DNA from: Candidatus Oxydemutatoraceae bacterium
GTDB lineage: Bacteria; Pseudomonadota; Gammaproteobacteria; Poriferisulfidales; Oxydemutatoraceae
Assembly: GCA_965219575.1 (NCBI GenBank)
Contig: OZ244779.1
Location: 2,252,769-2,316,768, forward strand
Length of the DNA stretch: 64,000 nucleotides
Direction: 5' to 3'
Shown in pieces: positions 5,334 to 62,556 of the stretch. Each line of letters begins with the position of its first letter. Position 1 is the first letter of the stretch. A model generated the notes under the pieces. That model did no database searches, was not told the origin of the DNA, and saw only the letters and a program-made list of their open reading frames with translations. Both the position numbers and the translations under genes were made by a program.

Positions 5334-5637
5334 GGGGCTGTTGGAAAAGTATTTCATGCAATGTAAGGGCAGAACAGAGCCACCGATTGAGCCAGTGGGT
5401 CAATCGGCAATTTAATAATGTCTGCCCTAAAGTATCGTTCAGAATAGCCACAACCGCTTGCGCCATTTGATTTTGGTTTCCATAAATTGGATGAATGAAT
5501 GTATAAATTGTACAGACGCAACGCGTTACGGGCGGACATGTTAGTCCGCCCCTACGGTTCGTGGATATTTTTCAACAGTCCCATAACACAACCACCCCGT
5601 CAGGCTGCGCCTGCCACCCCTCCAGAGGAGGGGAATT
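5334..5637. repeat. Modular intergenic repeat element
   Basis: GGGGCTGTTGGAAAAGTA ... TTTTTCAACAGTCCC inverted ends enclosing GCCGATTGA/TCAATCGGC and GGGCGGAC/GTCCGCCCCTAC hairpins, followed by the CCCCTCC-N3-GGAGGGGAAT module. Confidence 0.9.
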
Positions 5638-5642
5638 AACTA

Positions 5643-6785
5643 GTGCAGACCCGTTACAATTACAAGGTCGGAAGTTTCTGGACGGCGAGACAACGACAGG
5701 GACATAGCCTTCACGAAATTAGCTATAGAGCTTGTTTTAAGCCGCAGTTGCCGTCTTACTTTATAGATAAATATACATCGGTCGGCGATATCGTCCTCGA
5801 TCCTTTTATGGGCAGAGGCACCACCGCATTGCAAGCATCTTTAACGGAACGCATCGCTTACGGTAGCGATATCAATCCGTTGTCCACCATTCTTGTTGCG
5901 CCTAGATTAAATCCCCCCAATTTATGCGATGTAGAAAAAACACTCAGAGCGATGCCACAGAACGCAGACATACTCGACGAATACCGAGAGTTACTAACTT
6001 TTTTTCATCCGCAAACCCTAAGCCACTTAATAGCGATAAGGAATTGGTTTACAGAAAAAGAAACGAACAACACGATGACGAGTGCAGATCACTGGATACG
6101 AATGGTCATATTGAATAGGCTCAGCGGACATTCATCGGGGTTTTTATCGGTAAAAACCATGCCACCTAATCAAGCGGTCTCCGTAGAGAAACAGGCACAG
6201 ATAAACAAGCAATATAACCGCACACCGGAGCCTAAAGATTTAATCGCTATCGTGATGAAAAAAAGCAGAACCTTATTAAGGTCCGGATATCCATCGGCAT
6301 TAAAGTTCGGATATCCGCCGGTGGACGATAAACATAAATTGAGGTGTTGCCGTGCCGACGCGTTGGACTATATCAAAACCGGTGAGGTTAAACTGGTGGT
6401 GACATCGCCGCCGTTCCTGGACATAGTGGATTATGCCAAGGATAACTGGTTGCGGTGTTGGTTCGCCGATATAGACCCCGATAAAGTGAGCATCGATTGC
6501 CATAGCACCGTAGAAAAGTGGCGAGGGTTTGTGCGGCGAGTCTTCACCGAGTTTGCAAGGGTGGTGATGCCCGGCGGCTATGTCGCTTTTGAAGTGGGAG
6601 AGGTGCGCAACGGGAAAGTGCTATTGGACGAGGAGGTATTGAAATCAATAACAGACCTGCCTTTTGAACTCGTAGAGGTGCTCATCAATCAACAAGAATT
6701 TACTAAAACTTCTAATTGCTGGGGAATTAGCAACAATAAATCGGGGACTTTGACAAATAGAATAGTCGTTGTCCAAAAGAAATGA
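5643..6785 (+). CDS. Orphan amino (N4-C/N6-A) DNA methyltransferase
   Basis: SAM-binding motif DPFMGRGTT precedes catalytic VVTSPPF. No adjacent endonuclease. Confidence 0.85.
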   Translation: MQTRYNYKVGSFWTARQRQGHSLHEISYRACFKPQLPSYFIDKYTSVGDIVLDPFMGRGTTALQASLTERIAYGSDINPLSTILVAPRLNPPNLCDVEKTLRAMPQNADILDEYRELLTFFHPQTLSHLIAIRNWFTEKETNNTMTSADHWIRMVILNRLSGHSSGFLSVKTMPPNQAVSVEKQAQINKQYNRTPEPKDLIAIVMKKSRTLLRSGYPSALKFGYPPVDDKHKLRCCRADALDYIKTGEVKLVVTSPPFLDIVDYAKDNWLRCWFADIDPDKVSIDCHSTVEKWRGFVRRVFTEFARVVMPGGYVAFEVGEVRNGKVLLDEEVLKSITDLPFELVEVLINQQEFTKTSNCWGISNNKSGTLTNRIVVVQKK

Positions 6786-7245
6786 AGCTGTTGAAAAAGT
6801 ACTCCCTCTCCCAAGCCATAGGGTGGTTTGCAGATATTCAATGGTGCAAGCGGTTGGGTTCGTGCAAACATGACGCGTGTTCGGGTGGACATGCAAGTCC
6901 GCCCCTACGACTCGGTGGTTTGCATAAATTCATGGCGCAAGCGGCTACGACGGAAATGAAGCTGTTGAAAAAGTACTCCCTCTCCCAAGCCATAGGGTGG
7001 TTTGCAGATATTCAATGGCGCAAGCGGTTGGGTTCGTGCAAACATGACGCGTGTTCGGGCGGACATGCAAGTCCGCCCCTACGACTCAGTGGTTTGCAGA
7101 TATTCAATGGTGCAAGCGGTTGGGTTCGTGCAAACATGACGCGTGTTCGGGTGGACATGCAAGTCCGCCCCTAAGACTCGGTGGTTTGCATAAATTCATG
7201 GCGCAAGCGGCTACGGTTGTACAACGATACTTTTTCAACAGTCCC
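6782..7245. repeat. Modular repeat element with internal tandem duplications (174-bp and ~93-bp units)
   Basis: ATGAAGCTGTTGAAAAAGTACTCC at 6782 and 6956; three REP hairpins; right end TACTTTTTCAACAGTCCC. Confidence 0.9.
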
Positions 7246-7338
7246 GAAATAGCCGAGGACGCAGGTGATAGTACGACGAAAAAATGCTAACATACACATT
7301 TATAAACTAATCGTCTATTTCTCAACAGGACTATCCAG

Positions 7339-7617
7339 ATGAAGCTAATCTCTTTATTATCTGCGGTTGCCGCTTGGTCGCTTGCCGTCGTATTGGTTAT
7401 GCAGTTGTTGTCCGGTAACTTTGACACCCGCACTTGCCAAACGGATTGCGTGCAGAACATCTTTTGGTTATCTTTAGGTGTGTGCGTGCTCGGCTTGATA
7501 GTCGGTTGGGGTTTCGTTAAAAAACCCAAGCCCGGTTCGGTTATGTTTGCCAACATCGCGCTGTCGTTATTGCTTCTCATCTACTTGACCACGATAGGAA
7601 TCGGTACCTTTGGCTAA
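7339..7617 (+). CDS. Small hypothetical membrane protein (3 TM, CxxxC)
   Basis: AGGA RBS, three hydrophobic segments, CQTDC; directly upstream of coaD. Confidence 0.7.
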   Translation: MKLISLLSAVAAWSLAVVLVMQLLSGNFDTRTCQTDCVQNIFWLSLGVCVLGLIVGWGFVKKPKPGSVMFANIALSLLLLIYLTTIGIGTFG

Positions 7618-7633
7618 CAAGCATGGATAAATT

Positions 7634-10046: not shown

Positions 10047-10071
10047 TCATGGAAAGTGCAGACACTTCTGC

Positions 10072-10458
10072 GACTGTTGAAAAAGTATCCACGAACTGTA
10101 GGGCCGGTACATTCCCCTCCTTTGGAGGGGTGGCAGGCGCAGCCTGACGAGGTGGTCGCTAGGGTCTTGCACAATGTCACGCCGATTGAGCCAGTAGGTC
10201 AATCGGCGGCTCTGTTCTGCCCGTAACGCGCTGGTTGGCACGATTTATACATTCATTCACCCGATTTATGGAAACCAAAACCAAATGGCGCAAGCGGTTA
10301 CGGCTGTGCAGAACGGCACTTAAGGGCAGACATATAAGTCTGCCCCTACGACTCGGTGGTTATCGTAAATTCAATGGCGCAAGCGGTTACAGTTGCACGC
10401 TGACGATACTTTCTCAACAGCCCCACGATGCGACCAGCCCTACAAGGTCAATCAGCGG
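10072..10458. repeat. Modular repeat element (left border of T3SS cluster)
   Basis: GACTGTTGAAAAAGTA ... TACTTTCTCAACAGCCCC ends enclosing all hairpin modules and the ATGGAAACCAAAACCAAATGGCGCAAGCGG block. Confidence 0.9.
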
Positions 10459-10459
10459 T

Positions 10460-11824
10460 TCACGGTCTGTTGAAATAATAGCGTCCCAATTCGCCGTCTT
10501 TCGAGAGCAAGATAAACTCTCGGTTGATTTCTTTTATGGTATAACCTTCGCCTAAGGTAGCTCCGATTGTATAACGTTTGCCGTCCTGCGTCTCTAAATA
10601 GACTGCCTCACCGAAGCTAACCGATTGTAAATTTATACCGGGGTCAAATTCATTTATCTGAGATTTTCCTTGATCTATGTCTGCCAGAAGCGGTCGGTTG
10701 TCGAATTTTTTTCTGAAATTCTCGGCCAGTGTCTCGAGTTGCTGCAGTTCGGTATCGCTTAATGTTTGCCAGATTAAATAAATTGTATGCTTATCTACAT
10801 TGATGCCGACCTTATCCGAGAGGCCTTGAGCTACCAGCATTTGATTAAGTTCATTCACGGCATCATCCATAGTGCGCACTTGGTTGTCGTAGCCTTGCAA
10901 ACCTTGCACATCATCCTTGATCACATCCAATGCGCGCGCCCATACCTCACTCTTCTCAACATAACCGGATAGCCTCACTTTGCCGGGAAAACCCGGTACA
11001 CCGCTCACTTCAACCTTATCGGTTGCGGGATTTAAGATTTGACCCAATATAACCGATGTTGCGAGTTTCAATCGTTGTGCAGAGTATAATTGTGTTTGCG
11101 CGGTGATTTTGGCTTTACCCAATGCTTCCATAAACGCGTCGCGTCGTTCGTCGGTGTCGGTATAGCCTTGTATATATAGCATTTCTCTACCGTCTCTGGA
11201 CACGGTACGCACCGTCGCATCGATGACATATTCCTCTATAATCTGATCGATTTCTACGCTTTGTGTCTCTAAGTTTTCTCCGGGAATGTCCGTCGTCGTG
11301 AAAACGACGAGTAGTAAACTCAACCCGATGCCGATTAAGGCGATGCCCACCGATAAGTAGATGCGATTTGCAGGACGGTCGCTGCGCCACAGCTGCTGCC
11401 ACAATGACGGGGACGGCTGTGGGCTATCGTCTTTCGGTGTTTCTGCCGCTGCCTGGTCTTCGACTTGCTTGAAGCCTTGTCCCGCACCCAGCAATTCTAC
11501 GGGCGGCCATGCTTCTTGCGCAGCACCCAACGCAAAGAAAAAAGTGCCTGTGGAAACAACTTGATAGGGTTTGATTTCAACCGTATCCGAATCTATCTTT
11601 TCGCCGTCCAAATAGCAGGGATGCTCTTTGGAAAGAATGCTTAAACCGACCTTGCCCTCGTTTATAATTATTTGGAAATGTTGCTCCGCCAAGCTGGTGT
11701 CGTGCAGGATGATATCGCAATGCTCATCTCTACCTAATAGATAAACACCGGAAGACAATATCGCCTCCGAACCTATATGGGGGCCGGTTAAAATCTTCAA
11801 AATCCAGTCATTACCTTTATCCAT
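10460..11824 (-). CDS. sctD: T3SS inner-membrane ring protein SctD (YscD/EscD family)
   Basis: N-terminal FHA-like LKILTGPHIGSE...LGRDEHCDIILHD, one TM, BON-like periplasmic repeats, C-terminal SVSFGEAVYLETQDGKRYTIGATL. Confidence 0.88.
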   Translation of the reverse strand: MDKGNDWILKILTGPHIGSEAILSSGVYLLGRDEHCDIILHDTSLAEQHFQIIINEGKVGLSILSKEHPCYLDGEKIDSDTVEIKPYQVVSTGTFFFALGAAQEAWPPVELLGAGQGFKQVEDQAAAETPKDDSPQPSPSLWQQLWRSDRPANRIYLSVGIALIGIGLSLLLVVFTTTDIPGENLETQSVEIDQIIEEYVIDATVRTVSRDGREMLYIQGYTDTDERRDAFMEALGKAKITAQTQLYSAQRLKLATSVILGQILNPATDKVEVSGVPGFPGKVRLSGYVEKSEVWARALDVIKDDVQGLQGYDNQVRTMDDAVNELNQMLVAQGLSDKVGINVDKHTIYLIWQTLSDTELQQLETLAENFRKKFDNRPLLADIDQGKSQINEFDPGINLQSVSFGEAVYLETQDGKRYTIGATLGEGYTIKEINREFILLSKDGELGRYYFNRP

Positions 11825-11852
11825 CTCTAAGCCGTCTGTTATCAAAAAAAGG

Positions 11853-13610
11853 TCAGGGCGGTCCGGAATGGGTGCGCTTGGGCATATTCGGGTTTTGCGT
11901 CAACTGATTTCTCGGACGAGCCGTTTTTTGCTGCTTGGGCTTCGCCCTCGGATAATATCTATCTTCATAACTTTCATCGTCGCGCTTTAATATCTCCGCT
12001 TCGTCGACATCGGATTCAAAGACTACTTCGGATTCGACCAACTTGGGGCTGATTAAAAAGTAACGGCGAGTATCCAAATTGACCGTGTTTTGAACTCTGA
12101 ATAATAATCCGACAACGGGTAAATAACCCAATATCGGCACGCCTCTGTAACCCCTCGACTCCTGATTAACCTTATAGCCGCCGATGAGCAGGCTTTTCCC
12201 GTTGCTGACCATCGCTTGCGTTTTAACCGTGCTGTTCGTAATAGCCGGCACACCGTCGACCCTTTGATCGGCGGGAGATTGTCTCCCGTCTTGTATATCC
12301 AGAGTTAAAAGTATTTGGTGCGGGTCCTTATCATGATAAATCACATGCGGCTTAACTTTGAGCGTAGCCCCGTAGGTAATTGGCACCAAATCGACCGCTT
12401 CGCTCTCCGCATTCTGTGCGCCCAATCTCACATAAAAAGTCTGTTGATTAGAAAACTCCGCCTCGTGGTTATCTAGAGTCAACACCGAGGGGCGTGCGGA
12501 TATGTTCGCTCGCCCTTGTGTCTGCAGAGCCTCCAGCCTGATCCTGAATTGGCGACTTTGTGCGGCACTCATCTCGGTGATAGACAGTGCTGCTTGGGAA
12601 AACTCGAAATCTCCCGATTCGTAATTCCATTCTATGCCCAGACTTTCCGTTGCGTCGTCGTTGATATCTAAGATTAAAACTTCTATCTCTATTTGATCGA
12701 GTGGTTTATCGAGTTGATTTATCAGGGCTTCGTATAAGGGGATGCGCTCGGCTTTATCTCGTACGATGACCATATTCAATCGAGTATCTACAATGATATA
12801 GGCATCATCGGACCTTGCGGTTTGCTCGGGCGGACTTTCGGACTCGGGTGCGGGTTGTGCCGCATCGTCTTTAGCCTGTTCACCGTAGCTGGGAGACAAA
12901 CCGGTGCCCAGCAGTTTCTCGACCTCTTGCGGTTTTTTAACCGCACTATCACCACCTTCGGTCACGAAATAACCTACATTCATGATACGACCGAGTAACT
13001 GGGCAATATCCACCGTTTTCTGTTGACTATCGCTCGATGCATAGATGTATTTGAGTTTGAATATCTTCACTATATGATCGTCCAACGGTGGCAAAGTGCT
13101 AATTATCTTCGGCGGCTTATCGTCGGTGGAGTCCATCATCGTTTTCACCAGTTCTATAAATCTAGGCGGACCGGACAGTTCCATGCTATCACGGTTAGGA
13201 ATAAGCCTCCAGTGGTAGTGCGTTCCTATCACATTGAGCTCTTTGAGTGCGGCTTCGAGGTCGGTCGTGTCATCGGTAGTCGACGGGATAATCTCCTCTC
13301 CGATCTCGCCGGTGTTGTAGATGTACAGAACGGTGCCGTCGTAGAACCACATTAAGCGATAGATGCGCGACAGCATGGACAAAAAGTCCACCGCTTTCAT
13401 CGTCGGAAAATCACCGTTGACTATGCCTGCCACGGCAGGGCTGATCATCACCGGTAATTTTAATTCCGCAGCAAAATCGGAAATGACTTCTTTAATATCT
13501 TTGTCTTGTGCAAAATACCCGTAGCGATAGTCAATCCAAAGAGGCTGGGAAGATTGAGGATGCGTGGGGCTTATGACCATAAGCAAAAGCACAAATATAA
13601 ATATCCTCAT
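11853..13610 (-). CDS. sctC: T3SS outer-membrane secretin SctC (YscC family)
   Basis: YGYFAQDKDIKEVISDFA, LMWFYDGTVLYIY, LSGPPRFIELV, RPSVLTLDNHEAEF..QTFYVR, GVPILGYLPVVGLLF. Confidence 0.93.
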   Translation of the reverse strand: MRIFIFVLLLMVISPTHPQSSQPLWIDYRYGYFAQDKDIKEVISDFAAELKLPVMISPAVAGIVNGDFPTMKAVDFLSMLSRIYRLMWFYDGTVLYIYNTGEIGEEIIPSTTDDTTDLEAALKELNVIGTHYHWRLIPNRDSMELSGPPRFIELVKTMMDSTDDKPPKIISTLPPLDDHIVKIFKLKYIYASSDSQQKTVDIAQLLGRIMNVGYFVTEGGDSAVKKPQEVEKLLGTGLSPSYGEQAKDDAAQPAPESESPPEQTARSDDAYIIVDTRLNMVIVRDKAERIPLYEALINQLDKPLDQIEIEVLILDINDDATESLGIEWNYESGDFEFSQAALSITEMSAAQSRQFRIRLEALQTQGRANISARPSVLTLDNHEAEFSNQQTFYVRLGAQNAESEAVDLVPITYGATLKVKPHVIYHDKDPHQILLTLDIQDGRQSPADQRVDGVPAITNSTVKTQAMVSNGKSLLIGGYKVNQESRGYRGVPILGYLPVVGLLFRVQNTVNLDTRRYFLISPKLVESEVVFESDVDEAEILKRDDESYEDRYYPRAKPKQQKTARPRNQLTQNPNMPKRTHSGPP

Positions 13611-13630
13611 GGCATATCAATTTCCTTCCC

Positions 13631-15757
13631 TCACTCTTTTTCTTCGTACAGGCCATAATGATAAGTAAGATTTGTAATTTCAGGTACGGGAAATTTATCT
13701 CTAGTAGCACTAAATTGCTCGGGCTTTAATAGAAATTCCATATCTAATCCGAATTCACTGGCATCGCTATCCAACATTACGTCATAACTTGGATTCTTGA
13801 CGGAAGTATCGACATAAACCGGCGTAAATAATTTCGGTTTATTTTTCTCAAATTTTATTTTTACCGAAACCGAACCATCTTCATGTTTATTAAAATGATA
13901 TTGAAGTGGATCTTCACCGGAACCTACAAAAAAGCCATGAACCGGTGCCAGTTGTTCCCTCTTGAAAACTTGAAACACGGCCCCGACCGAACCTTGATGA
14001 AACTGCGAGATAGCGAACAGCATGTCTTTGTTTAACTCTCCGTCGGTAGTACAAAATTCTTTAAGCTGCTCTATTACTTCCGCTTCTGCCTTCGCAGCCG
14101 GTGATTCGTTAAAATAAGCGGTTGCGCGAACACCAATATCCTTTAAAAATTGTTTGGAAATACCATCTTCCTGCAAGCTATCTACCTTGCCACTGGACAG
14201 TTCCTTTTCTACATATTTAACTGCTGCATCGGAAAAAGTTCCACCTCCGCTCTGCCCCATGCGATCCGGAGTCGGTATTTTAATGCCGGTGTTTCGCATC
14301 AAATGAAGCGTTCTATCCTCTATCTCGGAAGCCGATTCCAGCGGTGCGCTTTGAGCCACGATTTCCGCTTCTCCCCCCGACTTGTTCAACATCGCCGCAG
14401 AGGCAAAGCCCAACGATTCCATCCATGTAGAAAATGTGTCGGCTGTTCGCAAACCGGATCTATAAAAATCGGGCAACGATGCTTCCTGCTTCTTATAGGC
14501 ATCGCTACCGGGAAAGGATAGCCGGTAATGGTTCGTTGCTCTGATATAAGAATTCAAAGCACCCGGTGTGGTGATCTGTCGGTGCATTTTATCCATCGTT
14601 GCGCGCCAATCTCCACCCTGTGCCATCATCATCAGTGTGCTGCGTTGTTCGCGAAGTTCACCGCTTAAATCTTTAATATCGTCTTTGGACTGTAAATCGG
14701 AAACCGCATTAGTGTATTCGTTGATTGCTTTTTCTAGTTGCGCTTCGGTTGAATTCGCATCGGCCATTGTTTGCAGATGAGGCTGTATCTGGCCCCCTGT
14801 CTCCCATGCCGTCTTGACTTGAGATACGGATAGCCCGCTCTTTATCACAAAATCCGTAACTTCGGTTTTTAATTTATCGTCGGAGATATTGAGAGATGCA
14901 ACAGCACTCTCGCCTGTTGATATTCGACTTCGGATATTCTCGGCTATTTCGGCAACACGTGCTTGACTCGGAAATTTAGGATTTTTGTCGCCTTCTTTAT
15001 ATATTTCTGCAGTAAGATCGGCTTCCATCTTTTCGTTCAGATAGTCGACGGTTTCTTGACTCATAGACGAAGCATGCCCCTTGATAATATAGTGCTTATT
15101 CACAACAAGTGCTGTATACGCCTGTACAGCCTCGGTTTGGAAAGCTTGCTTGGCAATAGTGTCCGCTGTCTTTTGGGAGACCTTGGTTTTACCGTTATCG
15201 CCTTTCTCCAGTATCTTGCTTTTTATTTGCTCGCCGGTGGCGGTAATATCTATAAAATCGCGTACTTCTGCCACATCGTCTTCGGACGAGTTATTCGGAA
15301 ACATCTCGGCTAAAGTGTTCGACAGTCCCGATTCTAAGTGATCCGTAGATTTCGGTTGAATTTCGGAGTCTCCTACCTGCACGACACCGTAACGAGAAGC
15401 AAGTTGATTATTTTTTTCCTGATTTGCTGCCTGTAAGTTATCAACCACCTGAAACGTTATAAAAACTTCACGCATATTCAGAGGTTTTTTTGAACTTTGA
15501 CTCAAACCGCCCGTACTAATCGCCTGAGATGTTATGCCCTCACCGTAGTGCGCACTCAAAGCATTGATAAAATGATTTCGGGTTTCGATATGCTGCTGAG
15601 ATCTATAGCCCTTGAACCAAGATACTATCCTTCCGAAAAAACGACCACCGCCTATTACCAAATTTCCCGATTTTGATAGATGTACGGTCGGGGCGTTGGT
15701 TCTTAAAGTGCCACTTTGACTAGAAAGGTCTCTATACGAATTAATATCAACCGGCAT
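13631..15757 (-). CDS. Putative type III secreted effector (708 aa)
   Basis: Ser/Thr-rich disordered N-terminus, then GRFFGRIVSWFK...FINALSAHYG resembling class I chaperone-binding regions. No signal peptide; lies inside the T3SS operon near a CesT-type chaperone. Confidence 0.65.
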   Translation of the reverse strand: MPVDINSYRDLSSQSGTLRTNAPTVHLSKSGNLVIGGGRFFGRIVSWFKGYRSQQHIETRNHFINALSAHYGEGITSQAISTGGLSQSSKKPLNMREVFITFQVVDNLQAANQEKNNQLASRYGVVQVGDSEIQPKSTDHLESGLSNTLAEMFPNNSSEDDVAEVRDFIDITATGEQIKSKILEKGDNGKTKVSQKTADTIAKQAFQTEAVQAYTALVVNKHYIIKGHASSMSQETVDYLNEKMEADLTAEIYKEGDKNPKFPSQARVAEIAENIRSRISTGESAVASLNISDDKLKTEVTDFVIKSGLSVSQVKTAWETGGQIQPHLQTMADANSTEAQLEKAINEYTNAVSDLQSKDDIKDLSGELREQRSTLMMMAQGGDWRATMDKMHRQITTPGALNSYIRATNHYRLSFPGSDAYKKQEASLPDFYRSGLRTADTFSTWMESLGFASAAMLNKSGGEAEIVAQSAPLESASEIEDRTLHLMRNTGIKIPTPDRMGQSGGGTFSDAAVKYVEKELSSGKVDSLQEDGISKQFLKDIGVRATAYFNESPAAKAEAEVIEQLKEFCTTDGELNKDMLFAISQFHQGSVGAVFQVFKREQLAPVHGFFVGSGEDPLQYHFNKHEDGSVSVKIKFEKNKPKLFTPVYVDTSVKNPSYDVMLDSDASEFGLDMEFLLKPEQFSATRDKFPVPEITNLTYHYGLYEEKE

Positions 15758-15795
15758 TTTTCACTCTTTCTTTTCTGGTGAACATCCATGGCGAC

Positions 15796-16029
15796 TTAAG
15801 CCTTATGAAGGTGATGCCAGACCTTCTCAAGCACCAAAAGTGCGCTTTGCAAGCCTATTCTAACTTGATTGAGTGAAGCGTATTCTTCCGGAGCAACACC
15901 GTTGCTCAGAATTTTATCTATCTTCGAAATCTGATCGTTTAATCGGGCTTTTATTTTTTCCTTCAACTCTCCTTTATCATCGGTTTTGAGTTTTTCTTCC
16001 AAAGAAAATTCTAATTTTTCATCCGCCAT
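15796..16029 (-). CDS. YscE/SsaE/EscE-family needle co-chaperone
   Basis: 77 aa helical hairpin LEEKL...GVAPEEYASLNQVRIGLQSALLVLEKV with the YscE pattern; T3SS context. Confidence 0.7.
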   Translation of the reverse strand: MADEKLEFSLEEKLKTDDKGELKEKIKARLNDQISKIDKILSNGVAPEEYASLNQVRIGLQSALLVLEKVWHHLHKA

Positions 16030-16071
16030 AAGTCTCTCTTTTCATTACTTAATGCCCAACCGTGATGAAGG

Positions 16072-16530
16072 CTAAACTTTCATCACGGTTGAATCTACAT
16101 CTTGATCGGCTACTTTGCCGCTTTGCGAGTGAGAAGCATTGAGATTCTTCATCCAATATTCCGCCACATTGATAAAATTCTCTAAAGATTGTTCAAAGTC
16201 CGACAAGTCCATTCCCTTGATTCTCTCGCTACAAATCAATGCAACCTTTCTCGAGATATTCTGGATTCCCAAAGTACATCTCTCGGTTTCTCCGTATATG
16301 TAATTAGCCTCCAGTAATTTATTCTCTACGCTCTCGGAACCGGCTACCGGCACATCGCCTAAATAAGAATACATATAAACGTATTGCTCATTGGGACTGA
16401 CCTCTATACTCACCGGGACTTCATCGAAGAAAAGATTGCATCGGCTATCCTCGTCCAAGCTCAGATCCGGCAAATTAATACCGGAACCGAAGTGCTTGAG
16501 TATGTTCTTAAAATCTTCTCTGTATGACAT
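16072..16530 (-). CDS. Class I T3SS chaperone (CesT/SycE/Tir family)
   Basis: Acidic 152 aa; LSLDEDSRCNLFFD, LLEANY, CTLGI, FEQSLENFINVAEYW. Confidence 0.9.
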   Translation of the reverse strand: MSYREDFKNILKHFGSGINLPDLSLDEDSRCNLFFDEVPVSIEVSPNEQYVYMYSYLGDVPVAGSESVENKLLEANYIYGETERCTLGIQNISRKVALICSERIKGMDLSDFEQSLENFINVAEYWMKNLNASHSQSGKVADQDVDSTVMKV

Positions 16531-16532
16531 AA

Positions 16533-17057
16533 TTATACCTCCTTTTGTTGATTACTAACTAACTCTTTAAGATTAACTGCGCGTTCGGCATAAGCTGCGT
16601 GTTCATTTTCTCCTTCGGCAATGGTTAACACCGTTTCCAGAGATTTTTTCGCGTTATCCCAATCCTTCATCGCAATATAACATTCGGCTGCATGGAAAGG
16701 TCCGTCGGGTTGCCCTACATCGAGCATCGTCGCAACACTATATGCCTTGATTGCAGGATCGTACTTCTTAAGTTTTTGCAAGCACGCAGCCCAACCCATC
16801 CAAAAGCGCCTATCGGTGTGTTCGTGTATAGAAAAGTATTGAAATAGTTTCACTGCTTCGTCAAAACGCCTTTGCTGATAAAGACTGTGTGCCAAGTGAT
16901 AGGCAGCTTCTACCTCATCTACCGTGAAACCTTTAATTGTACCGAGCGATACACCCTCTTCAAATAGATTTGTCGCTAAATCCTCTATTTTCTGCCACTT
17001 GGCATCGCTCTCCGGCAATGCCGATATTTCCGCAAGCCTGGCATGCAAATTCTCCAT
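16533..17057 (-). CDS. Class II translocator chaperone (SycD/LcrH, TPR)
   Basis: EAAYHLAHSLYQ, RFWMGWAACLQ, PFHAAEC. Confidence 0.92.
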   Translation of the reverse strand: MENLHARLAEISALPESDAKWQKIEDLATNLFEEGVSLGTIKGFTVDEVEAAYHLAHSLYQQRRFDEAVKLFQYFSIHEHTDRRFWMGWAACLQKLKKYDPAIKAYSVATMLDVGQPDGPFHAAECYIAMKDWDNAKKSLETVLTIAEGENEHAAYAERAVNLKELVSNQQKEV

Positions 17058-17081
17058 CCTATACCCCTACTTATAAAATAA

Positions 17082-18392: not shown

Positions 18393-18415
18393 AATTGTAT
18401 CCTCCTAATAGTCGT

Positions 18416-18892: not shown

Positions 18893-18922
18893 AAAAATAT
18901 CCCTCCGAGCACCTTAGAATGT

Positions 18923-19462: not shown

Positions 19463-19499
19463 ATCTCCTCCTTTGTTTAATTACTAAGTCTACTAATGT

Positions 19500-20039: not shown

Positions 20040-20071
20040 ATCTCCTCCTTGTTTGATAAATGATTGTAAGT

Positions 20072-30822: not shown

Positions 30823-31029
30823 GGGGCTGTTGAAAAAGTACGGGCGTTGCTCAAACCCAATCGCTGTGCGCCATGAACATTTACCGCCGTAGGGGCGGAC
30901 TTGCATGTCCGCCCGTAACGCGTTATGCATGAACTATTTATACATTCATTCACGCGATTTATGGAAACCAAAACCATACGGCACAAGCGGTTGCAATTTT
31001 GCAAAAACAGTACTTTTTCAACAGCCCCC
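30823..31029. repeat. Modular repeat element (~205 bp)
   Basis: GGGGCTGTTGAAAAAGTA ... TACTTTTTCAACAGCCCC; left half nearly identical to the reverse complement of the right half of the 62166-62556 copy. Confidence 0.9.
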
Positions 31030-33279: not shown

Positions 33280-33486
33280 GGGGCTGTTGAAAAAGTGCGG
33301 CATCGTACGAATCCAATCACTTGCGCCATTTGGTTTTGGTTTCCATAAATTGGATGGATGAATGTATAAATCGTGTAGGCACAACACGTTACGGGCGGAC
33401 ATGCTAGTCCGCCCCTACGGGTGGTTTGCAAATATTCACGGCGCAAGCGGTTGCGGTTGCACGCTGACGATACTTTTTCAACAGCT
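33280..33486. repeat. Modular repeat element, canonical ~205-bp form
   Basis: Near-identical to 43902-44107 and 61129-61335. Confidence 0.93.
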
Positions 33487-33540
33487 CCATGTGACAATTT
33501 AATAATATTTTGGTAGAAATGGGGAAATGACTCAACAACA

Positions 33541-37377: not shown

Positions 37378-37425
37378 AATTCCCCTCCTCTGGAGGGGTG
37401 GCAGGCGCAGCCTGACGGGGTGGTT
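37378..37425. repeat. Isolated CCCCTCC/GGAGGGG hairpin module of the repeat family
   Basis: AATTCCCCTCCTCTGGAGGGGTGGCAGGCGCAGCCTGACGGGGTGGTT is the reverse complement of 5590-5637. A shorter copy lies at 38054-38076. Confidence 0.85.
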
Positions 37426-40688: not shown

Positions 40689-40812
40689 ATCCCCCTCCTT
40701 GTAGGGACGGGCGGACATGTTAGTCCGCCCCTACTATGTCCGCCCGTAAGGGTGGCAGGCTCCGCCTGACGGGGTGGTTCAAAGCCGCAATCCGCCATGA
40801 ATTTATGCAACC
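40689..40812. repeat. Partial modular repeat between iscA and hscB
   Basis: A REP hairpin GGGCGGACATGTTAGTCCGCCCCTAC is nested inside the CCCCTCC...GGGTGGCAGG...CTGACGGGGTGG module. Confidence 0.85.
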
Positions 40813-43611: not shown

Positions 43612-44211
43612 AATTCCCCTCCTGTGACGGGGTCGGGTTTCGTCTGACGAAGTAGTCATGCCATTGGGCTGTTGAAAAAGTGCCGTTTTTGCACAACCGC
43701 AGCCGCTTGCGCCGTGAATTCATAATAACCACCAAGTCGTAGGGGCAGTATAAAGCCGCCGATTGAGCCGGTAGGTCAATCGGCAACTCTGATGTCTACC
43801 CTTAAGTACCGTTCTGCACGACACCAACCGCTTGCGCCAACAAATAATGGTTTCCATAATATTAATGGGTGAACGCGTTAATCGTGCAAACATGATACGT
43901 CGGGCTGTTGAAAAAGTGCGGCATCGTACGAATCCAATCACTTGCGCCATTTGGTTTTGGTTTCCATAAATTGGATGGATGAATGTATAAATCGTGTAGG
44001 CACAACGCGTTATGGGCGGACATGTTAGTCCGCCCCTACAGGTGGGTTGGATAATTATGCGACGCAAGCGGTTACGGTTTTGCAGAACAGTATTTTTTCA
44101 ACAGTCCCACGTTTCGGGCAGAACAGGGCCGCCGATTGAGCCAGTAGGTCAATCGGCAATTTAATTTTAGTCCGCCCCTACCACTTTATGAAATACTTTT
44201 TCAGCAGTCCC
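43612..44211. repeat. Compound cluster of modular repeat elements
   Basis: Two left ends (~43666, ~43902) and two right ends (~44107, ~44211); contains the canonical 205-bp copy. Confidence 0.92.
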
Positions 44212-44234
44212 ACGGCACGTTAGGAAGGAATGAG

Positions 44235-46866: not shown

Positions 46867-46950
46867 CGTTAATTTTTATATACACCGTATTTACACAAAT
46901 GTATATCCCTGTGCAGGAATATACACCGTGCATCACCGTGCATTGTTTTC

Positions 46951-49025: not shown

Positions 49026-49160
49026 GTTTTACAGTTAAATTAAAATTGTTTATTCGGGGTTGCTTCGCAAAGCTGTCAAATTAATAAAAGGTGATTATAT
49101 CATCCCTACCATAATAATGAAAGAACCCATATTTTCCTTGTAAACACAAAATAGTAATGT

Positions 49161-49430
49161 GGGGCTGTTGAAAAAGTATCCACGAACCTGAGGGGCGGTA
49201 CATTCCCCTCCTTCGGAGGGGTGGCAGGCGAAGCCTGACGGGGTGGTTTTGTCGTGTCTGTACTATGTTTATACATTCATCCATCCAATTTATGGAAACC
49301 ATTATTTGTTGGCGCAGGGCGGTTGGTGTTGTGCGATGTCCGCACATTTTCAACAGCCCCGAGGTTCTGCACAACATGATGCCGATTGACTTACCGGCTC
49401 AACAGGCGGTTCTATTTTCAACGACTCCAT
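49161..49430. repeat. Modular repeat element
   Basis: GGGGCTGTTGAAAAAGTA ... TTTTCAACAGCCCC (49360), followed by a GCCGATTGA module. Confidence 0.9.
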
Positions 49431-49667
49431 TTCATGCTCCATTGAGGAATTAGAGTAACTGCTTGCATTTATACAGAGATTCTGCATAATTCAAAATCAT
49501 GATAAATTTTGATGTACTAAAATCAGTGACTTTGAAACACTGATACGCTTAATGAATCTTGGGAAAAGATAATACGAATTTCGTTAATTTCGCTACAAGA
49601 GAGATACACAACCTTTTACTAGAACTAATCTATGGCAAGCTACATGTTGGAGATAAGATAAGAAAAT

Positions 49668-50900: not shown

Positions 50901-51753
50901 CTTTTATTCACCGCTTAGGTATCCGGGAGGGAAAACCAAAATAGCCCCAATTATTAAAAAGATATTTGATGAAAATAACATAGTAGGCTGTCATTATGTT
51001 GAACCTTATGCCGGTGGAGCCGGAGTGGCACTTTCATTATTATTAGAAGAGTTTGTCTCAACCGTCCAAATAAACGATTATGATCGCTCTATCTATGCTT
51101 TTTGGTATACCGTAGTTAATCAAAGTGAAGATTTTTGTAAGCAAATAGAGCGCATTCCAATTACGATTAAAGAGTGGTTAAAGCAAAAAAAAATACAAAA
51201 AAATAAAACCGACGTTGATTTATTTGATCTAGGCTTTTCAACTTTTTTCCTTAATCGTACCAATATTTCCGGTGTTATCAAAGGCGGGGTGATTGGGGGA
51301 ATAGAGCAACAGGGAGAATACAAAATAAATGCTCGTTTTAACAAAGAAAAACTCATCGAAAGAATAAGGAGAATAAGTAAATATGCAAATAGAATTGAGG
51401 TCACCAATGAAAATGCATTAAATATTTTTTCTCTTGATCTTAGCGGTGATTTTGTTTTTATTGATCCCCCTTATGTCAATAAAGCTAAAGACTTATACCT
51501 TAACTTTTATTCAAAAGAGGATCATATAACAGTTTCAGATGCAATACTCAAAAATAAATCAGACTTTAACTGGCTATTAACTTATGACCAAAATAACTTG
51601 ATTAAAAAATTATATGCATCCTGCAAACATAAATTCTCTTATGAACTAAGCTACGGAGCATCTAATCGTAAAAGTCGGGAATATCTTTTTTTTAGCAATA
51701 AGCTGAAAACACATGCCCTGAAGGATTGCTTAAAGACAGTAAAAATACCTTAG
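50890..51753 (+). CDS. Dam/D12-family DNA adenine methyltransferase
   Basis: SPLRYPGGK, YVEPYAGGAG, FFLNRT, FIDPPY. Confidence 0.93.
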   Translation: MANNFYSPLRYPGGKTKIAPIIKKIFDENNIVGCHYVEPYAGGAGVALSLLLEEFVSTVQINDYDRSIYAFWYTVVNQSEDFCKQIERIPITIKEWLKQKKIQKNKTDVDLFDLGFSTFFLNRTNISGVIKGGVIGGIEQQGEYKINARFNKEKLIERIRRISKYANRIEVTNENALNIFSLDLSGDFVFIDPPYVNKAKDLYLNFYSKEDHITVSDAILKNKSDFNWLLTYDQNNLIKKLYASCKHKFSYELSYGASNRKSREYLFFSNKLKTHALKDCLKTVKIP

Positions 51754-51958
51754 AACTGACGTTCCCCTATTTTTCGGGTCACCTGCAAAGTTAGTTTTCA
51801 TGCTCTATTGCGGGATCAAGAATTCTGTCAATAAATCAACTAAGCTATTGCTCTCTTTAGGTGCTTCTTGCCGGCAGTACGCCACATTTGAATATGAACT
51901 TAAACTCATTTTAGTTTTTAGAGTAAAGTCACCAATATATTTATTAGGAGATTAGTAT

Positions 51959-53221
51959 TCATCCTACTCTCGATCGTAATCGGCGTACATCGGTTTGCTC
52001 TAGACTCAGTTCCAATAACCACCCTTGCCCGGGTATATAACGATCGTTAACCACCCTTTTATTGTCGTACAAAGATGCGCGTATGGCACCGGCAGCGGGT
52101 GGCAAACACAGCCTATATATCGTTTTCTTTGCGGCGATTTCGGATTGCAACGCATGACGTAAAAGATCTATTCCCGTACCTTTTAGCGCGCTGATATAGA
52201 CGGTCCTAGCAAAGGCACCCCCGTTGAAATCTATCGCTGCCTTTGCGTCGTTTAAGCGATCTATTTTGTTCATTATTCTGATGCGCTTAATATCGCCGGC
52301 TCCGATTTTATCCAGAACTTGCTCTACGCAACGACGTTTCTCCAGCCGTTGCGGGTCGGAAGCATCTTCCACACACAAAATTAAATCGGCATCGCGAACT
52401 TCAACCAAAGTTGCATTAAATGCGTCTATCAATTCATGGGGCAGGTTTCGTATAAAGCCTACGGTGTCGGAGACCAACACCGTGCAATCCTCCAATTCCA
52501 AACGCCGAGTGACAAGGTCTAAGGTCGCAAAGAGCATGTCGGCGGAATCCACATCGGCCGAAGTCAGGGCATTGAACAAAGTAGATTTGCCGGTATTGGT
52601 ATAGCCGACTAAGGCTATAAGCGGTAAAGCATTTTTTCGGCGATTGCGCCGGCGTTGCTCGTGTTGATGTCTGATACTTTTGAGTTCTTTTTTAATCGTT
52701 GCAACGCGCCGTTTTAATAGGCGGCGGTCGGTCTCCAGCTGTTTCTCACCGGGACCGCGCAACCCGATACCTCCCTTCTGACGCTCCAAGTGTGTCCAAC
52801 CACGTACTAAATGTGTGGCAAGGTATTCCAACTGTGCCAACTCAACCTGCAATTTGCCCTCGTACGACTGCGCTCTTTGCGCAAATATGTCAAGTATCAA
52901 CCCCGTATAAGTGATAACTCGGGTGCAGGTGTGTTGCTCTAGATTTCGTATCTGACCGGGGCTTAAATCTCGATCTATTATGGTCAAACTTATATTATGT
53001 GTTTGCGCTTGCTCACGAATTTCGGAAGCCTTGCCCGAACCGATTAGATATTTAGGGTCCGGACGATGCCGACGAACCTTCAATACGAACTCTGCATGAA
53101 TTCCGGCAGAGGCAACAAGCTCACAAAACTCTTCCAAGTGCCGATTATCTTTGCGCTCTCTTCCGAAACTAGTACTAAGCAATATCGCCGACTCGGATAT
53201 AAATTGATGTGCTTCTCTCAT
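51959..53221 (-). CDS. hflX: Ribosome rescue GTPase HflX
   Basis: LILDIFAQRA, RGPGEKQLETDRR, GYTNTGKST, DTVGF, NKID. Confidence 0.97.
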   Translation of the reverse strand: MREAHQFISESAILLSTSFGRERKDNRHLEEFCELVASAGIHAEFVLKVRRHRPDPKYLIGSGKASEIREQAQTHNISLTIIDRDLSPGQIRNLEQHTCTRVITYTGLILDIFAQRAQSYEGKLQVELAQLEYLATHLVRGWTHLERQKGGIGLRGPGEKQLETDRRLLKRRVATIKKELKSIRHQHEQRRRNRRKNALPLIALVGYTNTGKSTLFNALTSADVDSADMLFATLDLVTRRLELEDCTVLVSDTVGFIRNLPHELIDAFNATLVEVRDADLILCVEDASDPQRLEKRRCVEQVLDKIGAGDIKRIRIMNKIDRLNDAKAAIDFNGGAFARTVYISALKGTGIDLLRHALQSEIAAKKTIYRLCLPPAAGAIRASLYDNKRVVNDRYIPGQGWLLELSLEQTDVRRLRSRVG

Positions 53222-53263
53222 ACTAGATAAATATTAGCCAGAATTTATTCATTATACAAGATG

Positions 53264-53307
53264 TTCCACTCCTCCGGAGAGGCGGCAAGTTTCGCCTGAC
53301 GGGGTGA
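53264..53307. repeat. Degenerate hairpin module of the repeat family
   Basis: TCCACTCCTCCGGAGAGGCGGCAAGTTTCGCCTGACGGGGTG. Confidence 0.65.
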
Positions 53308-53367
53308 TCTCCCCTACTTCAGAAAGCCGAAAGCAGATTTTTTTGTTATACTTCCCTAAAAATCATA

Positions 53368-56300
53368 TTGGAGAGAAAAGAATTGCCTATAAGCGAAGGA
53401 CAAATTGAAGACGACTTCATAAAGAAGTTACAAGAACTTAAATACACCTATCGTGATGACATTCATGATAAAGCTACGCTTGAGCAAAACTTTCGCCAAA
53501 AGTTTGAAGCCCTCAATCGCGTTACTCTGACGGATACCGAATTCGCCCGTCTGCTCGGCGACATCGTAAGCAACGATGTATTCAAGGCCGCCAAAACCCT
53601 GCGCGAATATCACCACTTTGAACGAGAAGACGGCACGCCACTCCAATATACCCTAGTGAACACCAAAGACTGGTGTAAAAACGAATTTGAAGTCATCAAC
53701 CAAGTACGCATCAATACCAAGTATAGCCATCACCGTTATGATGTCGTTATACTCATAAACGGCATTCCCGTCGTTCAATTTGAATTAAAAAGACACGATA
53801 TCGTCCCTCTCAAAGCCATGGAACAGATTGTCAAATACAAAAACGACCCCGATAACGGCTACACCAACAGCCTGCTATGTTTTATGCAGCTGTTTATCGT
53901 CAGCAACGGATATAAAACCTACTACTTCCCTAATAATAACAATAAGTATTTTGAATTTAATGCCGACGAACGCTTTCTGCCCATATACCAAATGGCAGAC
54001 CGAGACAACAAAAAAATCAGCGGATTGGATGACTTTGCCGATAGCTTTTTAAGCAAATGCAAACTCGGTCAAATGATCAGTCGCTATATAGTGCTGGTGG
54101 AAATGGAAGAAAAACTGATCATTATGCGTCCTTATCAGATCTATGCGGTGGAAGCCATCGTCGACTGCATTAACGAAAACCGAGGCAACGGCTATATTTG
54201 GCATACAACCGGCAGTGGCAAAACCCTGACCTCGTTCAAGGCATCGACTCTATTAAAAGACAATCCCGATATTGAAAAATGCTTTTTTGTCGTAGACCGC
54301 AAAGATCTTGACTATCAGACCAGAGCGGAATTCAACACATTCCAAAAAAAGTGTGTCGAGGAAAACACCAACACCGAAACTTTGGTGCGCCGCATGCTAT
54401 CGGAGGATATCGCCGACAAAATTATCGTCACCACCATTCAAAAACTGGCACTGGCACTGGACGATAGCAGTCAAAAGGCTCGCCGGCATAAACAAAAAGG
54501 CAGACAAACCTACAAAGAACGTTTGAAACCACTGAGCGACAAGCGCGTCGTATTTATCTTTGACGAATGTCACCGCTCGCAGTTTGGCGAAAACCACAGA
54601 GCCATTAAATCCTTCTTTCCTCAAGCTCAACTATTCGGCTTTACCGGCACACCGATTTTTGAGGAAAATGCCGCGAAAACAAGAATCGAAGAGACGGTAT
54701 CTAGCTATGTTACAACCGAGAGTGTTTTCCAGAAAGAGCTACATGCCTACACCATCACCAATGCCATTGACGACAAAAATGTACTCAAGTTTCATGTTGA
54801 CTACTTCGGTCAAAACAACGACAAAGACACCGACGATACAAGCAAAACGCTGGCGCCGGTTAAACCTACACCCGAGGCGGTCGTCGAAGAAATACTGCGA
54901 AAGCACGATAATGCCACCAACCATCGCCGCTTTAATGCACTGCTGGCTACCGGGTCAATCAACCATGCTATTGACTATTACGAACAATTCAAACGGATAC
55001 AAAAACAAAAGCAAGCCGAAGACGATGACTTTATGCCGCTCAATATCGCCTGTGTATTCACACCACCGATACAAGCCTTAGACAAAGACAATAACAACCT
55101 GCACGACATCAAACAGCTACAAGACGAACTGGAACAGGAAAAAGAGGACAACAAAGTGGAACCGGAAAAGAAAAAGGCTGCACTCAAAACCATCATTGCC
55201 GACTACAACAAGCAATACGGCACCAACTGTAGCATTAACGAATATGACCGCTACTACCAAAATATACAGCAGCGTATTAAAGATCAGCAATACAAAAATT
55301 CCGATCACCCGCATAAAAACAAAATTGACATTACGATCGTAGTGGACATGCTACTCACCGGTTTTGACTCCAAATACCTTAACACCTTGTATGTGGACAA
55401 AAACCTCAAATACCACGGATTGATTCAGGCGTTTTCGCGCACCAACCGAATACTCAACGGCACCAAACCGCACGGCAACATTCTTGATTTTCGCGGACAA
55501 AGTAAGGAAGTAGATGACGCGATTATCCTGTTTTCAGGAAAAGAAGCGTATGCCAATAAAAAAATCTGGCTGGTTGCCCCCGCCTCCGAAGTAATTGAAG
55601 AATACGAAACCGCAGTGCAACAACTGCAAACTTTTATGGAAAAAGAAAAACTGCAATTCCATCCCTCGGAAATAGCCAACCTCAACGGCGATATTGCCAA
55701 AACTAGCTTCATAACCCAATTCAGAGAAGTGCAGAAACTAAAAACACAGCTGGATCAATACACCGATGTAGATGACGACAACAAACAAAAAATAGAACAA
55801 CTCTTATCGGATGACCACCTGCAAGGCTATAGAAGTGCCTATCTAGAAATTGCACGAGAATTAAAAGAAGGGCGAGAGACCGGCAGCAATGACGAAAAAG
55901 CCGAACAACCGGATTTCCAACTGGTGCTGTTTTCTTCGGTTCTGATCGACTACGACTACATCATCAAGCTAATCTCCGAAATCACGCAATCCGGCACTCC
56001 ACAAAAAATGAACCGTGGAAAGCTCATTGAACTTATTCGGAGCGTTGCCAACCTAGAAGAAGACAGAGAGGATATTATCGACTATATCAACAGCCTAGAA
56101 ACCGGCGTGGTGATGGATGAACAAGCCGTTCGCGACGGCTATCAAAAATTTAAGGAACAAAAATCACAACGGATACTAACAAACATGGCACAAAAACACG
56201 GCTTGCAAACCGATACCCTGCAAAACTTTGTCGACAACATCCTGAATCGCAGGATTTTTGACGGCGAACACCTGAGCGACTTAATCGCACCGCTGGAACC

Positions 56301-60916: not shown

Positions 60917-60935
60917 CGGGGGATTGCTGTAATCG

Positions 60936-61400
60936 GGTGGCGCAAGCGGTTGAATTCATGCAGACACTTCTACAACCACCCCGTCAGGCTGAATAGAGCC
61001 GCCGATTGAACCAGCAGGTCAATCGGCGTGACTTTGTTCAGAACCTCAACATGACTGCTAAACGCATGCATTGCAAAATGCATAGGCCACCCCTCCACAG
61101 GAGGGGAATTAACTTGTGCAGACCCGCTGGGACTGTTGAAAAAGTGCGGCATCGTACGAATCCAATCACTTGCGCCATTTGGTTTTGGTTTCCATAAATT
61201 GGATGGATGAATGTATAAATGGTGTAGGAACAACGCGTTACGGGCGGACATGTTAGTCCGCCCCTACGGGTGGTTTGCAAATATTCACAGCGCAAGCGGT
61301 TACGATTGCGCCGTGACGATACTTTTTCAACAGCCCGACTTCTACAACCACCCTGTCAGGCTAAATAGAACCGCCGATTGAACCGGTAGGTCAAGTGGCG
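60936..61400. repeat. Compound cluster of modular repeat elements
   Basis: Canonical copy at 61129-61335, flanked on both sides by ACTTCTACAACCACCC.GTCAGGCT.AATAGA.CCGCCGATTGAACC direct repeats. Confidence 0.92.
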
Positions 61401-61529
61401 GTCCTGTTTTTGATACCGTTCGTCGGAAATGCAAAACAGCACCACATCGCCTATTTTATGATCCGACCATGATTAGACGGCTTGCTATGCTGCAAGCTCT
61501 TTCTTATAATTCAACTGAAGAGGTTAAAA

Positions 61530-62147
61530 ATGGAAAATATAGAAAATGTAGATAACTTAACCATTGAAACTATTTACAAAATGGTGCTTGAAATGAAGTC
61601 AAAGCTGGACTTTCTAGAATCGGAAACGCATGCCCCACAATCGGACAAGGCAGGTTTGTACATGGAAAGTATAGACCTAAGATTAAGCAATGTTAATTCC
61701 GACATCGTAAACATGAAAGCTGATACAGAAAGCATAAAGCTAAGATTAAGCAATGTTGAAACCGATATAGGAAGCATGAAACTGAGACTAAGCAATGTTG
61801 AAGCCGACATCGTGGACATGAAAACCGAGATGGCAGATATGAAAACCGATATAACAGTCATGAAAGCTGATATAGAAGATATAAAATTAAGGTTAAGCAA
61901 GGTTGAAGCCGATATCGTAGACATGAAAACTGAGATGGCGGTTATGAAAACCGACATCGCGAATATAAAAGCTGATATTGTAGACATGAAAGCCGACATC
62001 GCAGAAATGAGAAGGGATATTGCGAAAAATGCAGCGGAACAATCTAAATTGAGAGATGATATCTATAAATGGGGTCTAGTGTTGGCTGCTAGCATCGTTG
62101 TTTCGGTAAGTTCTATTGTCAGTATGGTCGTAATTTTTGTGAACTAA
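61530..62147 (+). CDS. Long coiled-coil, C-terminally anchored protein (DUF1640/CCDC90-like)
   Basis: Heptad repeats (IKLRLSNVEADIVDMKT...) followed by KW + TM. The start is inferred from upstream DNA shared with the 5084 paralog. Confidence 0.82.
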   Translation: MENIENVDNLTIETIYKMVLEMKSKLDFLESETHAPQSDKAGLYMESIDLRLSNVNSDIVNMKADTESIKLRLSNVETDIGSMKLRLSNVEADIVDMKTEMADMKTDITVMKADIEDIKLRLSKVEADIVDMKTEMAVMKTDIANIKADIVDMKADIAEMRRDIAKNAAEQSKLRDDIYKWGLVLAASIVVSVSSIVSMVVIFVN

Positions 62148-62165
62148 TGCCTGGAGCCTGAGAAT

Positions 62166-62556
62166 GGGGGCTGTTGGGAGAATAGTCTCTACCTCTACAG
62201 GAGAGGAATTAACCAGTACAGATACGACGAGGCTGTTGAAAAAATACTGTTCCGCAAAATTGCAACCGCTTGCACCATTGAATTTACGATAACCACCGAG
62301 TCGTAGGGGCAGACCTGTGTGTCTGCCCTTAAGTATCACTCTGCACGACACCAACCGCTTGCGCCAACAAATAATGGTTTCCATAATACTAATGGGTGAA
62401 CGCGTTAATCGTGCAAACATGATACGTTTCGGGCGGACATGCAAGTCCGCCCCTACGGCGGTTTGCAAATGTTCATGGCGCACAGCGATTGGGTTTGAGC
62501 AATGCCCATACTTTTTCAACAGCCCCCTTCCACGACGAACCTGCCACAGGAGGGAA
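62166..62556. repeat. Compound modular repeat element
   Basis: Left ends at ~62166 and ~62231, right end TACTTTTTCAACAGCCCCC at 62527. About 100 bp are near-identical to 43800-43900. Confidence 0.9.

Follow-up and report, generated by a model that had tools for sequence, protein, structure and literature searches.

The stretch of DNA studied here raises the question of what kind of element has filled its intergenic regions with hairpin-rich repeats and which enzymes spread them. The stretch, hereafter the window, comprises 64,000 nucleotides (C1:2252769-2316768) of the genome of a Candidatus Oxydemutatoraceae bacterium (G000), a single contig of 2.37 Mb with 47% G+C and 98.9% completeness. 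Its genes, including those of type II and type III secretion, the isc operon, purA, hflKC, and type I restriction, are gammaproteobacterium-like. A first-pass annotation made from the sequence alone had described one composite non-autonomous hybrid, assembled by mixing and matching a kit of modules: inverted ends (T), inner inverted repeats (A), a further module (B), a GTAG hairpin (C), and two other hairpins (D and E). The results of this study indicate that the repeats are probably stacked selfish elements, in which transposable elements of the miniature inverted-repeat type (MITEs) with the ends of an IS1182-family insertion sequence (IS) carry repetitive extragenic palindromic (REP) sequences as cargo and are nested in other hairpin repeats, two IS1182 variants most likely being involved. 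Of the earlier description, the non-autonomous unit with two T ends (T...T unit) and REP cargo stood; the single hybrid did not, and is replaced by a MITE of fixed order plus independent, nested D, E, IS110, and IS1380 elements.

Three congeners (G001, G003, and G004) were used for comparison, each as approximately 120-130 kb of sampled DNA (somewhat more in the counts of landing sites) and not as a whole genome. A 207-bp query matched 4 of 41 genomes, namely G000 and these three; G002 and the 36 genomes from other genera gave no match. In four sequencing runs, most contigs end at repeats of the 34000-53900 region, so that no empty allele was visible either way.

Modules and their order

All modules were recovered at their annotated places, and the estimate of about 15 multi-module loci agreed with the 15 loci counted in the window, where 15 of 24 gaps of at least 90 bp bear modules. 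Genome-wide, the motif counts were 448 for T, 440 for A, 306 for B, 296 for C, 166 for D1, 152 for D2, and 233 hairpins for E, vs 2, 9, 21, 0, 1, 0, and 0, respectively, in a shuffled genome; the modules are thus far above chance. Two or more module hits were present in 311 of 406 clusters, although in 20 of these 311 the hits are one E hairpin scored once per strand. A stricter count gave 286 multi-module clusters of 376, with modules making up 3.3% of the genome.

Free mixing and matching was ruled out by a single order, T-[A-C]-A-B-C-[A]-T, found in 139 of the 159 units shorter than 450 bp when oriented by their A-B core (the other 20 were not orientable and were excluded). Diversification by recombination between copies, as proposed earlier, was supported inside this fixed order. 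All four combinations of left-arm and right-arm states occur (66, 13, 38, and 22), one left part is joined to two alternative right arms in a 208-bp family, and tandems with crossed flanks were seen (e.g., C1:1742881-1744380). Of the canonical trio said to be near-identical, the copies at 33280 and 61129 are so (196/208), but the copy at 43902 is less alike (184/211 and 183/209 against them, ~87%) because only its left part is the same and its right arm differs. The flank word reported for two loci at about 20564 and 62216 was found at 20563 and 62215.

As to described RNA families, no Rfam family reached its gathering score in the window. The MITE at 33280..33488 folds end to end as single-stranded DNA (z -4.3). 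A role of A+B as a promoter was not supported, since none of the four promoter consensus hits in 33100-33600 fell in A+B.

T ends and the IS1182 family

The earlier suggestion that the ends are of the IS1182 type was borne out. The 18-bp T repeat forms the ends of intact IS1182 elements in G001 and G004. These are 1.6-1.8 kb long, their 18-bp ends are alike on 19 full copies, and their protein passes NCBIfam NF033551 (379 bits vs a cut-off of 270). Decayed IS1182 copies are present in G003, and G000 retains only a 30-residue relic of the gene. In G000, 493 T ends pair into 177 units, 165 of which are shorter than 700 bp. Exact target duplications of 4-7 bp flank 61 of these 165 short units, vs a mean of 3.9 and a maximum of 10 in 1000 permutations. 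The short units form 110 clusters at 90% identity; the largest is the family of ~208 bp, with 30 copies in many different flanks, 13 of them alike at 97% identity. The comparison of empty and filled sites in relatives, which the first-pass annotation had proposed, showed 6784-7245 and 20437-20921 to be empty in G003, with a single 5-bp target left at 6784-7245.

By all tests run, the T...T units are therefore MITEs of IS1182, except that the partner gene has been lost from G000. Judging from their sequences, they would have been moved in trans by the IS1182 enzyme, and because there is no intact IS1182 gene in G000 they are probably dormant in this genome. A Pfam DUF772 search of G000 found nothing, and the single DDE_Tnp_1 hit in G000, tried as the partner of T, was identified as IS1380. 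Among proteins, 153 relatives of the IS1182 transposase were listed (protein only), three at 69-81% among them, and a metagenome scan for IS1182 relatives confirmed none. The transposase at L021:1405-3135 contains an internal tandem repeat of ~55 residues with variable copy number (515-580 aa; elements of 1632-1827 bp).

The REP cargo

The reading of C as a GTAG REP was also upheld, in that it is tied to a gene like those of REP-associated tyrosine transposases (RAYTs), since arrays of A, B, and C flank Y1 genes of G001 and G004. A Y1 (HUH) gene is flanked by REPs at four sampled loci (L012, L013, L016, and L017) and at G000:C1:66166-67266. The encoded RAYT-like protein has 188 aa, with NHIH, WQ, and YIKYNP motifs and ~80 residues from HuH to Y. 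There are 263 plus 80 exact GTAG feet in G000, and the C stem covaries, with 199 G:C pairs, 72 A:T pairs, and one mismatch at the variable site (271/272 stems paired).

Three RAYT-like copies are present in G000, all inside T...T units. Two are intact: that at 66166-67266 lies in a unit with a 5-bp duplication, and that at 1094633-1095732 lies in a unit 99.5% identical to the former. The third, at 1742923, is truncated. No RAYT match was found in the sampled G003, though the repeats are present there. C is contained in 158 and A in 162 of the 165 short T...T units, and the junctions between T and cargo recur in few words. Of the C and A hits, more than half are not within T...T units, and many T...T units of G001 and G004 hold D or E in place of the A-B-C core.

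Two landing modes

Target duplications fell into two length classes. All 27 duplications tested at insertions beside D measured 5-6 bp and comprised 19 different words (an additional one, of 7 bp, was outside the test), vs 4 bp in 28 of 33 other insertions, half of them ACAT (Fisher p=2e-12). At D, the T end follows the GGGGTGGTY word by 7 bases in 61 and by 8 bases in 11 of 77 ends; 28 of the 77 show a duplication vs 4.2 by permutation. The D-arm word stands on at least one side of 119 and on both sides of 60 of the 165 G000 units.

A different target was used in G001 and G004. Eighteen of the 19 full IS1182 copies examined there have a REP stem at the flank and the target ACAT/ATGT; two pairs share a flank, and independent REP-loop events may therefore number 16-17. 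One of the four truncated copies examined lies in a REP loop. T ends occupy the loop of a REP variant in 35 of 75 distinct ends in G004 and 32 of 68 in G001, whereas the sampled D arms were filled in none, vs 33 empty in G004 and 32 empty in G001. This REP loop variant has no copy in G000, and the C loop holds just 3 of the 494 T ends there. G003 resembles G000: 10 of its 14 units are at D arms, and a decayed IS1182 sits in a D arm. This relic has 78-84% DNA identity to the G004 element, and the short G000 relics resemble the G003 relic more closely. Most likely, the two landing modes stem from two IS1182 variants with identical ends.

D and E hairpins

DUF559 genes, which the first-pass annotation had named as genes to look for beside the modules, were linked to D in other taxa. 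The exact D pattern was found in at least 120 stretches, and the 80 matches listed include Chlorobi, Cyanobacteria, Firmicutes, Deltaproteobacteria, and Vibrio. A DUF559 gene lies within 1.5 kb of D at 18 of 51 loci outside the genus (among the matches listed), although several of the 51 loci overlap and the independent cases are therefore fewer than 18; the corresponding number within the genus is 0 of 29. In other taxa, D often adjoins a DUF559 gene within type I restriction loci. The DUF559 hits of G000 and three relatives were rejected as partners of D, being in open reading frames of 1091-1867 aa without a match to the D-linked clade.

E is inserted in the C stem in 138 of its 233 hairpins (strict flank test) and in D in at least 10, and it also forms 38-bp tandems; an alternative inner palindrome can stand in its place between identical outer arms. 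IS110 lies in the C loop in 7 of 7 G000 copies, and IS1380 in D in three of four copies examined in G003. TnpB, IS1595, ISNCY-like, and IS3-like elements were tried as partners of E or T, but the modules do not form the ends of any of them. Five TnpB-like genes of G000 (C1:229821, 267408, 332011, 871759, and 1865966) have ends in common that are similar to those of an IS1595-like element. The word KVFLEGPLQ ends the reading frame in 41 of 43 G000 matches, including giant frames of 12,700-16,000 codons, and its stop is often followed by E or D, the left edge of E overlapping the stop. Judged from sequence, it looks like a common C-terminal export or anchoring signal; two short fragments with it occur in the window (30999-31658, plus strand; 37450-37989, minus strand).

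A further module, F, was seen at 20870-20925 and at many G000 loci. It has the CAACCACCCC arm in common with D, is linked to E by a 60-bp spacer, and serves as a T landing site too.

Features of the window

The features below are on the plus strand unless stated otherwise. At 5334..5582, a T...T MITE comprises T, a C stem whose loop holds E, then A, B, C, and T, with its right end on a D arm; a DUF559-type double hairpin D occupies 5591..5636, and the G003 site contains D only. The MITE array at 6784..7245 has an internal tandem duplication and a 5-bp duplication, GAAAT, round its 6958-7245 unit, and the empty G003 site has one GAAAT. A T...T MITE inserted at a D arm (10070..10424) holds D, E, B, A, C, and A, and G003 has D plus E at the arm but no T. 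The nested unit at 20474..20860 consists of an outer T, B, another T (20577) within a D arm, and then A, C, A, B, D, and T; ~480 bp are absent here in G003. A solo C hairpin lies behind a decayed T at 26175..26200.

On the minus strand, a 206-bp T...T MITE of the order T-A-B-C-A-T occupies 30823..31028. The canonical 208-bp MITE, also T-A-B-C-A-T, at 33280..33488 has a 4-bp duplication (ATGT). Two further minus-strand features are a solo D behind a gene fragment ending in KVFLEGPLQ (37379..37424) and a D with a C hairpin inside (40690..40770), where G003 and G004 have related but different stacks. An outer T...T MITE whose two C loops each hold E (43665..44211) encloses a 208-bp MITE (43901..44108) with a 4-bp duplication (ACGT) and a recombinant right arm. 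The 200-bp T...T MITE at 49161..49360 holds D, B, and A, has its left T end in common with G003, and is followed by a decayed E at ~49381-49407. A decayed D (53264..53306, minus strand) precedes the type I restriction operon, and a D at 60975..61109 holds E plus a 60-bp tail. A canonical 208-bp MITE (61129..61337) lies in a tandem of D, into whose D arm it is inserted, with D1 plus E after it to ~61400. The last unit, of 298 bp (62229..62526), reads T-A-C-A-B-C-A-T, its left end behind a D-arm word.

Some neighbouring sequences were also recorded. Multi-copy heptad-repeat coiled-coil genes with 21-bp repeats (5084-5323, 25844-26140, and 61482-62147) each adjoin module stacks, and a premature stop interrupts that at 5084. 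The type III secretion cluster at 10460-20362 (secretin, YscD-like, SseC-like translocator, and chaperones) is syntenic in G003 at 79% identity and contains a 300-bp tandem gene duplication at 18918/19495. A remnant of an IS110 non-coding (bridge RNA-like) region lies at 27800-27900, where synteny with G003 breaks. The 3' end of ispA is duplicated over 358 bp (31672-32029 and 33541-33898; single in G001, G003, and G004), and between the two copies are a DNA methylase gene and a MITE. Short sequences resembling the IS1380 right end (49430-49450 and 51780-51820) flank the accessory methylase pair at 49668-51753. Elsewhere in G000, multi-copy genes resembling those of Rpn-type PD-(D/E)XK nucleases occur inside or beside T...T units (C1:432954-434277 and 638228-639632; also 2047713, 2250279, 1768131, and 1146216).

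Discussion

The identity of the ends, the duplications, the empty sites, the nesting, the swapped arms, and the gene associations were observed. The activity of the enzymes, the order of events, the first capture of REP cargo by T ends, and the presence of two IS1182 variants we infer as follows. A RAYT-like HUH enzyme would have spread the GTAG hairpins (C) and their flanks (A and B) as arrays resembling bacterial interspersed mosaic elements (BIMEs) or REP doublets forming hairpins (REPINs). An IS1182-family DDE transposase with a preference for these repeats would have left pairs of T round REP arrays, and such pairs may have become MITEs that it mobilized in trans, each as one piece, with duplications of 4 or 5 bp, some also carrying the RAYT gene or IS110. 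D would be a separate hairpin derived from DUF559 endonuclease cassettes and the main landing pad in G000, while E and IS110 would land in the C loop and E also in D. Recombination may then have swapped arms within the fixed order, made tandems, and broken many duplication pairs. One IS1182 variant presumably cuts 4 bp apart in ACAT-like REP loops; for the other, the cuts would be 5 bp apart and at a constant distance from D.

Several results weigh against this reading. An intact partner transposase was not found in G000, where only the 30-residue relic remains, and 104 of the 165 short T...T units show no exact duplication. The congeners were represented by sampled DNA. The congener RAYT-like proteins pass PF01797 but score 58 bits vs the NF047646 cut-off of 80, and the Pfam Y1_Tnp (PF01797) search gave a false negative for the G000 copies, which were found otherwise. 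The two full RAYT-carrying units share a right flank, and therefore recombination may have copied one of them. In 19 family genomes, a search without a positive control gave no DUF559 gene of the D-linked clade, and no enzyme for E was found. Both duplication lengths occur in the one 208-bp family, as a single enzyme with two modes would likewise produce.

Indeed, one IS1182 transposase whose two target modes are set by the structure of the target DNA is a possible explanation, though somewhat unlikely. It would account for the identical ends and for the 208-bp family with both duplication lengths; with the preferred REP variant absent from G000 the enzyme might have fallen back on D, and GGGG(A/T)GG stands on one side of both targets. 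However, G001 and G004 have intact IS1182 and many D arms, all of them empty in the sampled DNA, and the divergence of the G003 D-arm relic from the G004 element, with the G000 relics on the G003 side, points to separate variants. Quite unlikely, in turn, is an element with two engines, in which the DDE ends and the REP signals are both selected, IS1182 dispersing the unit and the RAYT assembling its interior. The near-constant presence of C and A in the short units, the perfectly paired C stem, the few junction words, and the location of all three RAYT-like copies in T...T units, two of them intact while the IS1182 gene was lost, are all consistent with it. Targeting of REP arrays by the IS would explain the cargo equally, however, and the many C and A hits outside T...T units, the G001 and G004 units with D or E for a core, and the repeats of G003 without a RAYT match speak against two engines. 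A takeover of the whole REP-RAYT system by a DDE transposon, with the RAYT rebuilding the interior and a sister IS1182 variant switching pad and stagger from the REP loop (4 bp) to the DUF559-type hairpin (5 bp), is unlikely. If true, it would be a selfish community of three chemistries, with a near-identical transposase pair for the study of DDE target choice and stagger.

The first-pass annotation had further suggested that, at core/accessory junctions, the repeats may drive the acquisition of genes and rearrangement. The modules do occupy 8 of 10 junction gaps of the window against G003, T...T units elsewhere in G000 enclose whole genes, and mismatched flanks show recombination between copies. 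But 6 of 12 syntenic gaps are occupied as well (Fisher p=0.20; gaps classed by hand in this single window, with two gaps inside a block missing from G003 excluded), as are 304 of 718 gaps of at least 100 bp genome-wide (~42%, rough reading-frame calls), and the 30776-33541 insert ends in the ispA duplication and not in a repeat. The claim was thus not sustained, and a driving role is somewhat doubtful. A repeat kept by the host as a terminator or mRNA stabiliser, and not mainly selfish, is very improbable. The unit folds well, and occupancy is highest between convergent genes (82/125, vs 175/432 for tandem and 47/161 for divergent ones), but this bias also fits tolerated insertion. Moreover, sites differ between congeners, the 207-bp query had no match outside the four genomes, and there is no terminator-like site in 33100-33600. 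The stack of IS1182-ended MITEs and other hairpin repeats remains the best explanation.

Relation to known systems

The kinds of components are all known already; MITEs and REPs are treated in a review (PMC3184786), and REPINs and RAYTs in PMC3116915 and PMC2817692, respectively. As in MITEs derived from the IS1182 family, the units are non-coding, 150-550 bp long, and flanked by a short duplication, with terminal repeats like those of the intact IS1182 of congeners. However, their interior is a REP/REPIN-like cargo and not an IS deletion, and there are two landing modes. The family has palindrome-targeting members, e.g., IS1272, according to PMC5678879 and PMC4923244. Unlike IS1272 as presented there, 4 or 5 bp are duplicated here and the hairpin is not deleted.

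The GTAG foot, the perfect stem, and the inverted pairs and arrays flanking a Y1 gene with NHIH, WQ, and YIxxNP motifs are as in REP/BIME/REPIN systems with a RAYT. The best fit is RAYT subclass 2.4, i.e., Bertels group 4, going by Table 1 of PMC6006769. The protein differs in having YIKYNP and not YIxNNP, lies below the NF047646 cut-off (congener proteins), and is multi-copy, with DDE-type ends enclosing the gene in G000. TIRtrons or TIRYTs (Di Nocera 2013; PMC3733652), as far as the accessible text describes them, likewise enclose a RAYT-like gene in terminal inverted repeats unrelated to the GTAG repeats, some with GGGGWSAS. In our case, the inverted repeats are traced to IS1182, target duplications are present, and the REPs are kept inside, whereas the same portion of that paper credits the terminal inverted repeat families to the tyrosine transposase; IS1182 is nowhere in the paper's text.

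REP-targeting ISs include IS1397, IS621, ISPpu9/10, and ISRm22; the families given in PMC1525189 are IS3, IS110, IS4, IS256, and IS5 but not IS1182. The near-total insertion at one REP position (IS110 7/7 and IS1182 18/19) resembles these; the use of common pads by IS110, IS1182, E, and (in D) IS1380 does not. As in hairpin-flanked DUF559 (PF04480) cassettes, the exact D motif is present across many phyla and often has a DUF559 gene next to it, but here D is an orphan with ~150 copies. In the literature searched, with most subscription papers outside its scope, neither an IS1182 MITE with REP/RAYT cargo, nor D-type DUF559 hairpins, nor such cassettes as mobile elements were found.

What is new is that DDE ends carry REPINs and a RAYT gene, and that pad and duplication length change between sister lineages. 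A streamlined 2.4-Mb genome can hold ~3% of nested selfish repeats, with other repeats serving as safe landing pads. The enclosed RAYT-like genes suggest that, in some TIRtrons, DDE ends have captured a RAYT gene. In the IS1182 family, which has been little studied, the landing modes offer a change of target and stagger that can be tested directly, and the D hairpin shared across phyla suggests that DUF559 cassettes are a mobile system in need of fuller description.

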